Assembly: GCF_056712565.1 (NCBI RefSeq)
Contig: NZ_CM160072.1
DNA: 64,000 nt
Direction: 5' to 3' (one strand)
Shown here piece by piece: positions 18,001 to 24,000 of this stretch (position 1 is its first letter; the number at the start of each line of letters is the position of its first letter). A program made the position numbers.

Positions 18001-21000
18001 ATGACAGGAAAGCGCAGAGACCGCCGACCATCGCCGAGACCCACATCGCATTGAGCATATATTCATAGCTGAAGGGTTCCAGTAGCACGTTCATCTTTCT
18101 TCCCTCTGCACCGCTGACGGTCGATGAGCCACAAAAGGGCGTTCATCGTCAGTAATAATGCTTTCTTCCGAGCCGTTAAGTGTGACATGGCGCAGTACGC
18201 CGCTAAAAGCCAGCTCCAGGTTCTCGGCTGTAAAAGTGGTGTCTGTCGGCCCGCTTGCCAGGACGGTGCCTTTGACCATGACCGTATAATCGCAAAATGT
18301 CGTGACGGATCCGAGATTGTGTGTTGAGACAAGCATCGTTTTGCCTTCCGCGCGTAACTCCCTCAACAGGCTGATGATTTTGGCTTCGGTTTTCACATCA
18401 ACGCCGGTAAAAGGTTCATCCAGCAGGATCACATCACCCTGCTGTGCAATCGCTCTCGCCAGAAAGACGCGTTTCTTTTGTCCACCGGAAAGCTCGCCGA
18501 TTTGTCGATGGCGAAAATTCACCATATCGACACGTTCCAGCGCATCGGTGACAATCTGACGATCCCTCTTTTTGGCGATACGCAACATACCCATATGCCC
18601 ATAGCGGCCCATCATCACCACATCTTCCACCAGTACAGGAAATGACCAGTCAACATCTTCTGACTGAGGGACGTAGGCAACCAGGTTTTTCTGTAACGCC
18701 TGTCGCGTGGGAATACCCAGAACAGATATCTTTCCGCTGGTCAGACGCACAAATCCCATAATCGCTTTAAACAACGTCGATTTTCCGGAACCGTTTACCC
18801 CAACCAGAGCGGCAATAGATCCGCCTGGTACTGTGAAGGATGCATCGCGCAGTGCTGTGTGCCCGTTACGCCAGGTGACAGTAACATCATTAACGACAAT
18901 GCCTGCAGATTGCATCATTATTTCTCCCTTTTCCCAGCTTTAATTCCCTGTACCAGCGTACTGGTAGTAACCTTAAGAAGGTCGATATACGTCGGTACCG
19001 GGCCGTTTTCTGTGCTCAGGGAATCGACATAGAGCACACCGCCGTAGTGTGCGCCGGTTTCACGCGCAACCTGACGCGCTGGTTTATCGGAAATCGTACT
19101 CTCGCTAAAGACTGCCGGGATATGATTTTTCTTAACTATATCAACAACCTTACGTACCTGCTGCGGTGTTCCTTGTTGATCGGCATTAATCGGCCACAGA
19201 TAAAGCTCTTTTAGCCCCAAATCGCGTGCGAGATAAGAAAAAGCCCCTTCACTGGTGACCATCCATCGCTGATTCTCAGGGAGTTCCGTAATCTGCTTAC
19301 GCAGGGGGGCAAGGGTTTGGGTAATCTTGGCTTTATAAGTATCGGCATTGCGTTGGTAGGTTTGTGCATTTGCCGGATCGTATTTTATCAACGCATCACG
19401 AATATTATCGACGTAAATCAGAGCATTATCTGGCGACATCCATGCATGGGGGTTAGGTTTGCCCTCATAGGGTCCTTCGGTGATCCCTACAGGCGTCACA
19501 CCCGAAGAGACAATTACTTCTGGAACCCCATTGAGATGCTGGTAAAAGCGTTGGAACCACAATTCCAGATTCATACCATTGGCGAGAATCAGTTGTGCCC
19601 CCTGCGCACGTTTAATATCGCCAGGGGTAGGCTGATACTCATGAATTTCTGCACCAGGCTTGGTTATGGATGAGACTTCTGCAGCATCTCCCGCCACGTT
19701 TTTGGCCATATCCGCGATGATGGTAAATGTTGTAATGACCTTGAATTTTTCAGTTGCACTTGCCTGAAATGCGATCGAGCAGGTGAGTGCGAGGCCCCCC
19801 AAGAGCATGGTTACTTTTTTTATCGAGTGCATAATTTAGTACCTATAGTGAGCAAAATTAGAACAAACATAGCAACGGCTATGTTTTATAGCACAACCTA
19901 TACAAAATGAAAATGATTATCATTAGCGGTTTTGAGGCCCAAAACAGGGATTAGGTTGTTTCCGGCTGGCGACGCGTTATTGAGGAAAAAAGTAAGGCAG
20001 CTAGTAGGCTTTGAAATAACGTTTTGCGGTTGGCTGATGCAATTTCGAGAGTGCATGTATTGAATGATTTCTAGCCGTTACTGATTTTCGTATTTTTTGT
20101 ATGGGAGGATTTGCACCTCTCCCCACCGAGCCTCCATGACTTTACTCCACTGTCTCTAGGGCTGCTGTGTGCCAGGAGCGGAAGCAGGGGGGCCAGAGAC
20201 TCCTTAAAAGTTGATAGCTCGTTTTGCAGGGAGACTTACACGGTAAGCGTTATTCCGAAGAGCTTAAAATTGAAGCAGTCAAACGGGTTGTTGAGCGTGT
20301 TTATGCGCTGCCATCTGATTAATCGACGGAAGCAGTTCCGTTTGGTCTATGATGCAGTTGTCCGGCAGGCGCTCTGTGACGCAAAAGAACGATAGGAGTA
20401 GCATTGAAGTGAACGAGGTTATGCTTGTCTTATATTATCCTCTATTTTAAAAACATCAGCTGGTTGTGTAAGAGTTTTTATTGTTTTATCTTGTTGACTT
20501 TGCTTTTATGAAAACAGAGTGATTGATACAATGAAAACCTTAAGTGGGAAAGAGTTTAGGAAATTATTTAATCGTTATGAGACAGGATTCTATCTAAGTG
20601 AGTTTGAATACTTAAAGGACTTTGATCCTTTGTTTCCTGAATGCGTAGGGAAAGAATTAAAGTTGGGTTATAAACGAAAAGTTGATGTATGGTGCGAAGA
20701 GGATGCTGCGCTATATGCAGAATTTATAGCTACAAAAGAAAGGCTGAAAAGAGGCCGGTTAATCCTAAAAATAAACCAAGTGTGGTCGCGTGTATATCCT
20801 GCTTATATTTATGCAATTGAAGAAAGAATAAATGTCAGGGCAAAGGGGAGAGAGTCATTTAAGTATGAAACTGTGCAAGAAAAACAATGTAAACTTTCCA
20901 TAATGTTAGATGGTCTGAAAGACCTTGAATGTGAAATAGCTATGATTTCAAGTGAGTTTGAAATTGAAAAACACTCTATGCACTATTTTTATATGATTTT

Positions 21001-24000
21001 TGATATTGAACGCTATATAAATGACTGCAGTTACTTTGTTTTTTCTGCTGCTAAAGTTGTTAAAGGCGTGATTCAATGCATTGGTTACATTGACAAAAAT
21101 AACAAAGCAAGTTGCGATGAATTTTATTCAGGCAGCTATGAATGCTTGGATGATGATCAGGAAACACTGAACTATTTAAATGAATCATGCGCAGAGGGTA
21201 TAGACGCTGATAAAGATCTCATCAGGAAGAATGAGTTATTAGCCTTATCCCTGAAGGAATTGTATCAACTTCTCGTTTCAAAAAAATAACAAGTAATACG
21301 GCGAGCGATATGACGTGCCATGGGATATCCGCACCCAGCAGCATGTTGTCTCCACGATGTCCGCAGTTCGCTCATAATAGACATTCACTACAGTTATAGT
21401 AGAAGGTATGCATGCTGCTGAGTGGGGAAAGTGTGAAAGAAAAGAAGACAGCTGCTTTGTTTGTCGTCACGTTTATCTTCATTGGCTATGCAAGTCGTAA
21501 TACAAGGCGGGACAAAACTGAGACACATAAGGCCTCGCAATGGCTTGCAAGGCCACACATGTATTGAGATGTTAATAAAATGTAGACTTGTAATTTTGAT
21601 ATAAATGGTAGAGAAAATCTTTCCCCAAAATAAAAACGAACGTCAATGAAATCAAACGGTTGAATAAAGTTGATTTTGGCTAATACAAAGACAAGAAAAT
21701 AATATTTATGATTAAATATCAGCGAGTTGAATACATAATTTTTATATACTGCTGCGCCATATGGGCTGGACTGAAGCCGCAGACCTGATTGTTAAAGGTA
21801 TGGAAGGTGCAATCAACGCGAAGACCGTAACCTATGACTTCGAACGTCTGATGGAAGGCGCTAAACTGCTGAAATGTTCAGAGTTTGGTGACGCGATCAT
21901 CAAGAACATGTAATCTCTACATGTGTTAAATATTGAAACGGGCGTATAACACGCCCGTTGTTTTTATAAATATGTTAACCGTTATAAAATAACGTATCAA
22001 AAGTCAAGTGAACACATTTCAAATATCAATTTGATCGTATTGGTCTGGTGATTATTTATGGGGAGCAATAAAAAGACAGTATTAATCATCCATAGGGATA
22101 GTCTCTGCACTTTTATTTCCATTATGCTAATGCCTTACTGAATTATGAAGCATTTTTTAAGCTCCCAACTTTAGCTAGATTAATGGTTTATTATTTTCTA
22201 CATCTTCAATATATAAAAGCGTATTATCAATGGCGTAGTAACTGCGTTTGTTATGATTAACATCAGTAACCCACCGGAAAACGCCAGCGCCTGCCAGTGT
22301 TGAACAGTATTCCCGAAATGTAGATTTTCCGCGAATATGAAGCAATGCGGCCTCTTTTATTTTAGCTGGGTTCTTGGTCGTACTAACTTTTAACAGGTTC
22401 CTGGTTCCTCTTAATAACAAAACCGTGTCATCGTGAGTAATAATTCTGATGTTATCCGTAGCCAGATAATAAATGTAATGTGCAATACGGTGATGTTTTA
22501 ATTCTGAATAAAACCAGGAGAAGTTTTGCTCTTTTCTCACTTGCTCAAACATCTTTTGAAAAACAACGACCTGATCCATCAGGATAATAACCTCTTGTTA
22601 GGTGTGAGACTGCGTAGTGTGCACGATCGGTTTTACCACTTCAATCTGGTCTGTCCTTTGGCTGTGATATGTACAAAGTGTGAAAGGGGGATTACCTGAA
22701 TTCTCCCGGTGGGCATTTTGCAACGGACCAGCTCCGCTACAAACGCTGGTGTGGGTTCAGATTATAACATTCTGTCTAAGGGGCGGGATAAAGGTGAATT
22801 TAGGGGGCATGAAAGATGACTTTATAACCTTGCTCACCCCAGTGTTGTAAAAGTTCGTTTTGCCTTCTCGTTGGTGCCATGCCTGTCCAGACAATCAATG
22901 TTTGCGTTGGGAACAGTTCCGGGCGCGGCGATTCAATGGGATCAGCAAGAACAGAAATGTGCCATCCTGACAATGATAAACGCCATGCTTCCAGCCACAA
23001 TCGTGCTCTCTCTTCAACATTCCACGCCATCAGAATGGCCTCTTTACCGGGCTTACGGCGCATTTCGAAAAGTGAGGCCGCTGCGTATTCAATTAATGCG
23101 CCGTCAAACATACTGCTCATAATGCGGGAGGTGTTGTGATCAAGCACGAGACGCTGGCGAACAGGAAGGTAAACATGATTAATCAATTGATCTACTGGGT
23201 ACTCTCGACCCAGTGAAATAATTCGCGCGCGTAGTTTGGCTGGATTAGCCATACGAAGAATTGACATCATCTCTTCTTGCAGGCGGTTCCAGTCATCTTG
23301 CGTATCCTGGCTGGTAGTTTCCAGTAATGCTTTAACTTTGCCTACAGGAACGCCATTACTTATCCAACGCTTAATCTCTTCGATGCGTTGTATGTCTTCT
23401 TCATCAAAGAGTCGGTGTCCGCCTTCACTGCGTTGTGGTTTTAACAAACCGTAGCGGCGTTGCCAGGCCCGGAGAGTGACAGGATTAATCCCGCAACGTT
23501 CAGCAACATCACCAATGCTGTAATAAGCCACAATTCCTCCTTGCGATCATAAATCTCCGTCGCCTCTACACGACCCAATAATACTTTGTACAATATATGC
23601 TAAAATTGTACAAAGTATAAATAAGATTTCAGCTAAATTGGATGAAACATTATTTTTAATGTGGATTAAATTAAAACATAACGTATTCATTTTCACGATG
23701 ATTTCCAGAAATCATGCGAAATAATGTGCTGAAAATTATTTTTTCTCCGGCCACGCAACTGAAGGGATACCATTCAATTTAGCTTTGGAAAACAGATCTC
23801 CCTGAAACATCTCAATTCCTGCAGATTCAAGCCACATCCACTCTTCTGGTGTTGCCACGCCCATAGCAGAGACTTGAATTTCAAGTGATGTACAGCATTT
23901 CATGATCGCCTGAATAATTGCCTGCCGTGGTCCGCTTTTATGAACATTGGTAATCAATTCCTGACTGATTTTAATTCTGTCAGGCTGGAAGCGTGACAGG

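Follow-up and report, generated by a model that had tools for sequence, protein, structure and literature searches.

Among the closest described counterparts of the gene analysed here, gp31, are the morons of lambdoid phages, such as rexAB, bor and lom of lambda and sitABCD of phage 21. Like them, gp31 has an atypical composition, lies between conserved phage segments, is present or absent in close relatives and appears to be autonomous. Its product is not homologous to that of any described moron, its promoter and terminator are candidates at most (scans gave no consensus on the + strand), and, unlike most morons, its unit is also exchanged among ICEs and genomic islands, bounded by a specific palindrome. 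This last property recalls integron cassettes, since gp31-type units likewise comprise one or two ORFs followed by an imperfect palindrome of ~75 nt in the orientation of the ORF, and occur in arrays. However, the element lacks the RYYYAAC/GTTRRRY boxes of integron attC sites (AAC/GTT-like triplets alone fit), the mismatches of its hairpin are symmetric instead of forming extrahelical bulges, and no IntI was seen in the gp31 loci examined, where the one recombinase is a Xer-like protein of 200 aa.

With respect to the protein, gp31 shares the predicted beta-alpha-alpha-beta-beta winged-helix fold of the MerR/AlpA/Xis group (HTH_17, excisionase-type), from which it differs in its acidic recognition helix and in matching no Pfam or NCBIfam profile. 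The members of that group have no counterpart to its C-terminal ~195 residues, modelled as four long helices. In RacA and pSK1 Par, a MerR-like wHTH followed by a coiled coil serves DNA anchoring or partition, whereas the helices of gp31 are predicted to fold back into a compact bundle and not to extend as a coiled coil. A search upstream of gp31 gave no repeated sites of a centromere-like kind, and an integrating phage has no need of partition. DdrC of Deinococcus radiodurans, in which a wHTH is combined with a bundle of four helices at the C-terminal end, is among the closest known systems to this architecture (PMC9303277).

The gene lies in a window of 64,000 nucleotides, which is the whole stretch of DNA that was analysed. 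A sequence-only reading had singled out an AT-rich ORF of 252 codons (20531..21289, + strand), which proved to be intact, with a GC content of 0.34 (0.343 over the ORF; GC3 0.31) compared with ~0.50 around it. Over 20400-21200 the GC content is 0.33-0.35; the sit genes on the left have 0.48-0.55, and bluR, on the right, has ~0.47-0.49. Because stop codons are expected at ~7% per codon at this composition (an arithmetic estimate), the chance of 252 open codons is ~5e-9; an alternative in-frame GTG start at 20519 would extend the product to 256 aa. The protein (WP_000567449.1, PHROG 20520) is 100% identical to phage 21 gp31 (CPT_21_31, UMO75446.1), labelled ‘hypothetical protein’, and positions 13531-21964 of the window match phage 21 at 99.6% identity over 8.4 kb. 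The same reading had suggested an undescribed gene, which does not hold for the ORF as such, annotated since 2022 in the phage 21 genome (overall GC 51%; PMC9119081). Its further remark that the product resembles nothing has to be reduced, given this identity, to the statement that no characterised family fits the whole protein.

The reading had also placed the ORF between an IS remnant and attR, and both were located. The sequence 20241-20313 matches IS3-family transposase genes found on thousands of plasmids (86-88% by blastn), within a remnant comprising the degenerate 5' part of orfA (20185..20419, +); the annotators of phage 21 had remarked on an IS3 similarity that they found unconvincing. 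To the right, the displaced 3' end of icd (21761..21913, +; annotated as a partial isocitrate dehydrogenase in Nissle 1917) marks the attR side of a phage-21-type prophage integrated in icd and is followed by ymgL, ycgX, bluR and bluF; phage 21 has its own icd' copy beside attP, and gp31 is situated in the b region, ~0.7 kb from attP. On the left, the tail genes with which the ORF had been compared lie farther out, the immediate neighbour being another cargo, the sitDCBA iron/manganese ABC transporter (16383..19832, - strand). Since this operon intervenes on the opposite strand, gp31 cannot be reached by read-through from the late operon.

We found the gene in 759 of 5426 complete E. coli genomes (~14%, about one in seven), including Nissle 1917 and the type strain ATCC 11775, and in ~20 sequenced lambdoid phages; a scan of IMG/VR returned the E. 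coli phage allele as the sole match. The proposal that it is a horizontally acquired single gene by the attachment site is supported, and the defence or host-interaction role attached to it is not established. In the sibling icd-integrating prophage of FDAARGOS_144 and in phages 4A7, D2, 1W and 3W, ~500 bp of unrelated DNA stand in place of 19970-21468, between flanks that remain 94-98% identical. In addition, Citrobacter, Klebsiella, Mangrovibacter and one Aeromonadaceae MAG have the ~0.95-kb unit in ICEs and genomic islands, where the homologues (63-88% identity) are solitary genes, and in other Enterobacterales it also lies downstream of a small Xer-like recombinase. Deep protein searches (5.8 billion proteins, and a scan of 1.84 billion representatives) gave no relatives past ~21 clusters and P0035, a distant relative with 26% identity on a plasmid contig. 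A conserved partner gene was sought and discarded, as the ORFs up- and downstream are unrelated between homologue loci. Searches of the literature with the protein accession and the CFT073 tag c1601 found nothing.

In the cassette, which spans ~0.95 kb (1.2 kb with the IS3 remnant), the ORF lies between a leader that contains a constrained block and a 3' tail, the whole being bounded by two arms of the ~75-nt imperfect palindrome, whose consensus is RAY-n-TCCGCT...AGCGGA-n-GTTG. The left boundary (20152..20184, +), with the core GTGCCAGGAGCGGAAG, corresponds to the 3' half of the element (model positions 38-70; cmsearch with model R1, 21.5 bits, E 3.3e-07), and the motif occurs at the same relative place in six other loci (L002, L003, L006, L008, L020 and L022). 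The right boundary is a decayed 5' half, ATGTCCGCAGTTCGCTCA... (21357-21393; cmsearch 8.8 bits, E 0.003), which ends a conserved 3' tail delimited by alignments (21290..21393, +). In this tail we found no intrinsic terminator on the + strand, and a structured RNA or terminator was rejected given an RNA fold z-score of -0.79 and no Rfam match. DNA homology to L002 begins at 20154 and that to L008 at 20169; these two Citrobacter loci share the IS3 remnant, which lies inside the cassette leader and is missing in L003, L006 and L022. The best copies of the element fold as near-symmetric hairpins, conservation ends right after GTT, and the 5' RAY triplet can pair with this GTT. Copies separate successive genes in L002, L003, L006, L009 and L022, with the higher-scoring strand following the gene. 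Because several copies upstream of gp31 are half-sites, exchange may take place in mid-element. The sole recombinase in the loci read is the Xer-like protein, of which the catalytic domain is recognisable below all NCBIfam cut-offs. The same element also bounds cassettes with T5orf172/GIY-YIG, HNH_2, DUF1963, GNAT and unassigned ORFs, and the T5orf172/GIY-YIG protein matches the PD-Lambda-1 and PDC-S57 models.

A 5' leader travels with the gene (20420..20530, +; alignment of seven loci) and contains a block of 37 bp (20463-20499) with a mean pairwise identity among these loci of 0.915, compared with 0.716 in the remaining leader and 0.780 at third codon positions, so that the block is conserved above the synonymous rate (91.5% against 78%). 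The TTGACT previously taken as a -35 hexamer is present (20494-20499) and kept in orthologues; it was rejected in that role for want of a usable -10 at a distance of 16-18 nt, and the sigma-70 scan gave no consensus promoter on the + strand upstream of gp31. Read by eye, a candidate promoter combines TTGTGT (20464-20469) and TATCTT (20487-20492) with a spacing of 17 nt. We also set aside the CII box of the phage 21 annotators (TTGT-N6-TTGT, 20481-20494), the first TTGT of which is not kept in non-phage orthologues and which, as a loose motif, we estimate to be expected by chance. A mini-ORF, ATGAAAACAGAGTGA, occupies 20508-20522 of the leader.

The gp31 protein is soluble and acidic (pI ~5.3), without a transmembrane segment. 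Its AlphaFold model is confident (pLDDT 92.5, pTM 0.84) and predicts a winged helix of the MerR/AlpA/Xis type in residues 1-55, with the four helices of the compact bundle in residues 56-251, the helix right after the winged helix being 55 residues long. The structure checks proposed earlier thus yielded a confident model and no characterised family matching the whole protein. Foldseek against AFDB50 returned the protein's own family alone, a Pfam scan gave no match even at E<=10 (and nothing relevant for P0035), NCBIfam gave none, and the HTH_17 (PF12728), Phage_AlpA (PF05930) and MerR (PF00376/PF13411) profiles had no significant match. Aligning the N-terminal alignment to an AlpA protein with hhalign was not significant (probability 0.4%), PDB sequence searches with the protein and the N-terminal profile gave nothing useful, and PHROG 20520 has no assigned function. 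The wing (YKRK) and helix 1 are basic, each net +3, and the canonical recognition helix 2 (LSEFEYLK) ranges within the family from acidic to neutral, with a net charge of -3 to 0. Conserved residues of the bundle are E98/R99/R103, E113/T114/E117/K118/K121, Q182/C183, E197 and L206-D209. Inspection by eye identified no HD, HEPN or other catalytic motif in the bundle, and the idea of such a motif was dropped; the sole invariant histidine is H151. As in DdrC, the winged-helix fold is in itself no proof of DNA binding (PMC9303277).

Our tentatively preferred reading, to which we give appreciably less than an even chance, is that gp31 is a non-enzymatic binding protein expressed in the lysogen and employed in conflict between mobile elements. 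Its expression in the resident state would start from a promoter of its own, perhaps with autoregulation via the 37-bp block, and the protein would act through binding and not catalysis. Its identity in phage 21 and other functional lambdoid phages speaks for this reading. The winged-helix head and a basic helix 3 may touch nucleic acid, and the bundle would serve oligomerisation or recognition of a partner, its conserved residues probably clustering at the pole away from the head, judging from helix topology. The outcome might be that phages or other elements are excluded or fended off as they enter. We regard conflict as the likeliest role because the autonomous gene is shuffled among cargo sites of mobile elements, has the same cassette format as genes of the nuclease type and is replaced at its site in the sibling phages by the truncated remnant of an ORF that has an Rx4H (HEPN-like) motif. 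Two preprints on integron cassettes provide a precedent for small cassette genes that encode phage defence (bioRxiv 10.1101/2024.07.02.601686; 10.1101/2024.07.02.601719).

A defence role is plausible. Against PADLOC-DB v2.0.0, gp31 itself gave only a weak PDC-M13C match covering 24 residues (2-25; E 0.0077). Among 20 neighbouring ORFs from the homologue loci, two had domain-level defence matches (T5orf172 and HNH) and one a weak match to a 2TM effector (E 0.0003), while most matched no defence model; in locus L018 a type I R-M system and Imm50 adjoin the homologue. A protein without an effector domain would be unusual as a one-gene defence system, which counts against a conflict role, as do the acidic-to-neutral recognition helix, the failure of Pfam HTH profiles to match, the lack of a consensus promoter or terminator in the scans and the dispensability of the gene. 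The more specific proposal, that gp31 founds a new family of one-protein anti-phage or anti-mobile-element systems carried by undescribed, IntI-independent, palindrome-bounded cassettes in ICEs, plasmids, islands and lambdoid phages of Enterobacterales, we consider improbable. The svsR sRNA, which protects as part of the icd-integrated prophage NC-SV, lies within cI and is unrelated to gp31 (PMC12803456).

The same fold and leader would also suit a transcription factor that reprograms genes of the host or element (lysogenic conversion) with no part in conflict, the MerR-like head binding an operator and the bundle sensing a ligand or dimerising. The 55-residue helix that follows the winged helix resembles the dimerisation helix of MerR, the 37-bp block could be the operator, and gp31 has no effector domain. 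Recognition helices of MerR proteins typically have conserved arginines, however, which the acidic helix of gp31 lacks; the block occurs just once in the 64-kb window; and no conserved target lies nearby in very different hosts and elements. This explanation we consider possible though unlikely. A version in which C166, C183 and C195 sense metal or redox state, an idea taken from the adjacent sit operon, was rejected because these conserved cysteines are missing in P0035, and gp31 occurs without sit elsewhere, as does sit without gp31.

That gp31 instead helps an incoming element to establish itself, for example by blocking a restriction, defence or silencing protein of the host with acidic decoy helices, has a slight chance of being right. 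The protein as a whole is acidic, helices 4 and 6 having net charges of -4 and -5; its carriers are phages and ICEs, that of the distant relative P0035 is a plasmid contig, and some copies lie near replication or transfer modules. Antirestriction and RadC genes accompany one homologue locus, which is part of a CP4-type island. Against this, gp31 has its own conserved leader outside early or leading operons, shows no likeness to the known Ard, Ocr and Klc families and, in phage 21, is situated far from pL/pR, across attP from int and pointing away from it.

Similarly slight is the chance that gp31 was acquired along with IS debris and is, in phage 21 and E. coli, a neutral passenger. It did arrive with an IS3 remnant, its boundary elements have decayed, and sibling phages manage without it. 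Moreover, the gene is interrupted by IS1 in at least six complete genomes and shortened alleles are common, from which we conclude that it is dispensable. On the other hand, among 760 E. coli records with a match, 758 share at least 99% identity with gp31, and at least 80% of the query is present in 758. When decay of orthologues was looked for, all seven were intact, with dN/dS of 0.16-0.41 and a GC content steady at 0.34-0.38 though their hosts have higher GC. On these alignments gp31 is a real gene, under purifying selection across genera, and its confident, well-packed predicted fold suits a working protein.

Least probable of all is an accessory of DNA architecture, similar to an excisionase or directionality factor, for the cassettes or the host element: such factors are small (<~130 aa) and co-regulated with an integrase beside them, whereas gp31 has 252 aa with a large helical domain and lies across attP in a phage that already has xis adjoining int, most homologue loci have no nearby recombinase, and same-boundary cassettes carry unrelated genes, so that gp31 is not needed for their spread.

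As a member of a founding model phage and of about one-seventh of complete E. coli genomes, gp31 lends itself to a direct test between defence protein and regulator, because it is short, autonomous and easily cloned and phage 21 is genetically tractable. Should it have a phenotype, it would represent a new protein family, for which the search of 5.8 billion proteins gave ~21 clusters and which lacks structural relatives. As for the palindrome-bounded format, it may outweigh gp31 itself in importance, as it hints at a way for single accessory genes to pass between ICEs, plasmids and temperate phages. The sequence of the element was not found printed in the literature, and an assignment to a known RNA family was rejected for want of a match. 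Near-full copies are present in 53 E. coli genomes, at no more than three places per genome, a rarity that led us to reject a host REP as its origin.

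The protein encoded at 20531..21289 on the plus strand, here gp31, was said in the sequence-only reading to resemble nothing recognisable, but a tblastn search of sequenced phages found it 100% identical to CPT_21_31 of phage 21 (UMO75446.1, 'hypothetical protein'). The identical gene occurs in about 20 other lambdoid phage records, for example ev207, 1H12, ev017, Perceval and PhiR47_2. Window positions 13531-21964 are colinear with phage 21 as one block at 99.6% identity, and the window therefore carries a phage-21-type prophage in icd, with gp31 in the b region beside the attachment site. 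The gene order in phage 21 is J, side tail fibre, two small ORFs, sitDCBA (minus strand), small ORFs with IS3 debris, gp31 (plus strand), gp32, the icd' pseudogene, attP, int and xis. The ORF is thus already known as a hypothetical protein, having stayed hypothetical in the phage 21 genome paper after InterProScan, BLAST and HHpred (PMC9119081), and a moron next to att is a familiar category. Among complete E. coli genomes, an 881-bp segment containing gp31 is present in 759 of 5426, including Nissle 1917 and the type strain ATCC 11775, with at least 99% identity in 758 of 760 matching records.

The ORF itself is real. Its reading frame is open from a GTG at 20519 to 21289, translation from the ATG at 20531 yields the originally quoted product of 252 aa, and by our own arithmetic 252 open codons would arise by chance at this composition with a probability of about 5e-9. 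Its AT-richness was also borne out: GC is 0.343 for the ORF (GC3 0.31) and 0.33-0.35 across 20400-21200, compared with 0.48-0.55 in the sit genes to the left and about 0.47-0.49 in bluR to the right. The IS remnant is present at 20241-20313, matching annotated IS3-family transposase genes on thousands of plasmids at 86-88% identity, and attR corresponds to the displaced icd 3' end at 21761..21913, followed by ymgL, ycgX, bluR and bluF in the same order as annotated in E. coli Nissle 1917. To its left the ORF adjoins sitDCBA, the metal transporter genes of the opposite strand, and the phage tail genes lie farther out.

The gp31 family is small. When 5.8 billion proteins were searched, relatives at 63-88% identity turned up in only about 20 further clusters, belonging to Citrobacter, Klebsiella variicola, Mangrovibacter, Salmonella and an Aeromonadaceae MAG. 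A more distant relative, P0035 (26% identity), is carried by a plasmid contig of the IncFII-repA, Dot type. Seven orthologous coding sequences were extracted; all are intact, with pairwise dN/dS of 0.16-0.41, and orthologue GC is constant at 0.34-0.38 regardless of host. At the DNA level, similarity to other loci covers about 20420-21374, comprising a 110 bp leader, the ORF and a tail of about 85 bp; in two Citrobacter loci it reaches left to about 20154, taking in the IS3 remnant. No neighbour is conserved when upstream and downstream ORFs are compared across loci: the gene was found in cargo sites of ICEs of the ICEclc/pKLC102 type (three cases, at differing positions), at the end of a CP4-like island, adjoining Imm50 and a type I R-M system, immediately downstream of a 200-aa Xer-like recombinase, and in several loci of small uncharacterised ORFs. 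gp31 is dispensable. It is interrupted by IS1 in at least six complete genomes (for example, E. coli ZJ3920, at 680-2227 of the compared locus), and truncated forms are frequent in assemblies (P0021 and P0022, the latter of 139 aa with 181 member sequences), so its loss is tolerated. These data show gp31 to be an autonomous, horizontally shuffled gene under purifying selection, in keeping with the idea of single-gene cargo inside attR.

The gp31 cassette is flanked by a repeated, imperfectly palindromic element (about 75 nt) with the consensus RAY-n-TCCGCT-yCTCGCTCAG-AGCGGAC-(22-26 nt)-GTCCGCT-nn-GTGCCAGA-AGCGGA-n-GTTG, or in short form RAY-n-TCCGCT..AGCGGAC-N22-26-GTCCGCT..GTGCCAGAAGCGGA-n-GTTG. 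Only its 3' arm remains to the left of gp31 (20152-20184, E 3e-7), with a decayed 5' arm to the right (21357-21393, E 0.003). Searching with a sequence model of this palindrome located copies between nearly all genes of variable arrays in ICEs, islands and plasmids, in the same orientation as the preceding ORF. Among the compared loci, there are five to six copies in L002 from Citrobacter (5280, 6838, 8063, 9582 and 10829), six in L003 (1673, 2870, 8546, 9854, 10817 and 13769), four in L006 (8358, 9805, 10987 and 11757), three each in L009 (7132, 10809 and 11428) and L022 (2837, 3805 and 6024), and copies at 5007 and 7430 in L025. The best copy folds as a single long hairpin (z-score -4.3), while most are degenerate. 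The element has no Rfam family, and no printed match to its sequence was found in the literature searched. It occurs on at least 530 plasmids in PLSDB, from Klebsiella, Enterobacter, Citrobacter, Salmonella and E. coli. On E. coli chromosomes it is rare, with a near-full copy in 53 genomes at no more than three places each, which rules out a host REP. Although it shares the layout of an integron attC, we did not accept it as one: it lacks the RYYYAAC/GTTRRRY boxes and the asymmetric bulges, and no IntI lies near the copies. New here is the evidence that gp31 belongs to a pool of palindrome-bounded single-gene cassettes spanning ICEs, plasmids and a classic temperate phage.

We also observed a two-gene cassette bounded by the palindrome (L002 4809-5987; L003 8705-9837), encoding a 146-149-aa protein and the 200-aa Xer-like tyrosine recombinase, which consists of the catalytic domain only and is 83% identical between Citrobacter and Klebsiella. 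The smaller protein is TolA C-terminal-like in L002, and a TolA-like gene is also found at L025 9792-10077. In L003 the gp31 homologue follows immediately after the pair. The Xer-like protein is a candidate recombinase for the cassettes.

In the phages 4A7, D2, 1W and 3W and in E. coli FDAARGOS_144, about 500 bp of unrelated DNA take the place of window positions 19970-21468. Within this replacement lies a 5'-truncated ORF of which 97 C-terminal residues are encoded; it has an R-x4-H motif (..EIRNKLAHGQW..; 2073-2366 of the FDAARGOS_144 locus, and the same in these four phages and Lambda_4C10). This fragment has no Pfam match and weakly matches the HEPN region of Cas13b models; no intact copy of the ORF was found in the phage collection. 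Because the replacement stands in place of gp31 and terminates in another, weak copy of the palindromic arm, the interval from sitA to attP serves as an exchange site for cassettes of this format.

Within the leader, a 37-bp block (20463-20499) is conserved at 91.5%, compared with 78% for third codon positions and 72% for the rest of the leader, and a presumed regulatory element therefore travels with gp31. Read by eye, it holds a putative promoter with -35 TTGTGT (20464-20469), a 17-nt spacer and -10 TATCTT (20487-20492); a plus-strand promoter scan found nothing. The TTGACT hexamer earlier taken for a -35 is present at 20494-20499, but has no workably spaced -10. The leader alignment, also read by eye, contains a mini-ORF at 20508-20522 (ATGAAAACAGAGTGA, MKTE*) whose stop lies 9 nt before the ATG, and ATGAAAAC is duplicated in this region. 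Equivalents of 5-7 codons (e.g. MKMEWAR*, MVWAR* and MEWPR*) precede the gene in L002, L003, L004, L006 and L008, where stop and main start overlap (TAATG or TAGTG), a pattern suggestive of translational coupling. A TTGT-N6-TTGT at 20481-20494 is annotated as a CII box in phage 21, with TATGAA (20507-20512) 12 nt downstream, an arrangement resembling the geometry of lambda pRE. Only the phage allele has the first TTGT, through a G-to-T change, where other loci read ATGG. So loose a motif is expected by chance, and CII-dependent expression at lysogenisation would be only a lead.

The gp31 protein has no match in Pfam, NCBIfam or a PDB sequence search, and its sole PADLOC match spans 24 residues (E 0.0077). 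PHROG 20520, which has no assigned function, matches it full-length. An AlphaFold2 model built from a 20-sequence alignment was confident (pLDDT 92.5, pTM 0.84), placing a beta-alpha-alpha-beta-beta head at residues 1-55 before four long helices (56-110, 115-147, 153-189 and 206-251). In this model the head is a MerR/AlpA/Xis winged helix at fold level, a membership unsupported by profile and profile-alignment comparisons of sequence. This modelled assignment, the tiny family it applies to, and a C-terminal module without informative structural match are likewise new. The wing (GYKRKVDVW) is basic, as are helix 1 and the opening half of helix 3; the canonical recognition helix (LSEFEYLK) ranges from acidic to neutral throughout the family. 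The paper on DdrC cautions that a protein need not bind DNA through a winged-helix motif whose surface is non-basic (PMC9303277). Conservation as far as P0035 takes in the N-terminal domain core, H151-Y152, E197 and L206-x-D208-D209; the cysteines are not conserved. Judging from helix topology, most of the invariant polar bundle residues (E98/R99/R103, E113/T114/E117/K118/K121, Q182/C183, E197 and D207-D209) would be located at the pole opposite the head. With an overall acidic character (pI ~5.3) and no membrane segment, gp31 is a soluble two-domain protein without catalytic signature.

The most likely reading, which we hold tentatively, is that gp31 would be expressed while its element is resident, under a promoter of its own that may be self-regulated. 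The protein would function through binding, either to nucleic acid or to a partner protein or to both, and its role would lie in exclusion or defence when mobile elements are in conflict. In its favour we count the cassette format shared with GIY-YIG/T5orf172 and HNH genes and the Rx4H alternative at the same phage site. Two preprints further report small cassette genes that encode phage defence (bioRxiv 10.1101/2024.07.02.601686 and 10.1101/2024.07.02.601719). Against it stand the absence of a match to PADLOC defence models, the lack of an effector domain, the acidic recognition helix, and neighbours that are mostly just uncharacterised ORFs. That a protein with such a head is a plain transcription factor is possible but rather unlikely. 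The more novel claim, that gp31 represents a new defence family acting as a single protein and carried in a hitherto undescribed cassette system independent of IntI, is improbable. We give still less weight to an anti-defence or establishment factor and, equally, to a neutral passenger. An excisionase-like accessory factor is the least probable. For the icd-integrated lambdoid prophage NC-SV of AIEC strain NC101, protection against virulent phages has been credited to an sRNA within cI (PMC12803456).

Two neighbouring features deserve mention. One is the phage 21 gp32 (21412-21567), annotated as a putative membrane protein of 51 aa. Its start falls within the variable segment (up to 21468), and its remainder lies in DNA kept by sibling phages that lack that start; it also contains a minus-strand terminator-like hairpin (21554..21531), and may not be a real gene. 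In E. coli strains WP9-S17-ESBL-11 and 2023CK-01687, sitABCD also occupies the right end of another lambdoid prophage, next to uspF-ompN and without gp31, so the sit genes and gp31 were acquired independently of each other.
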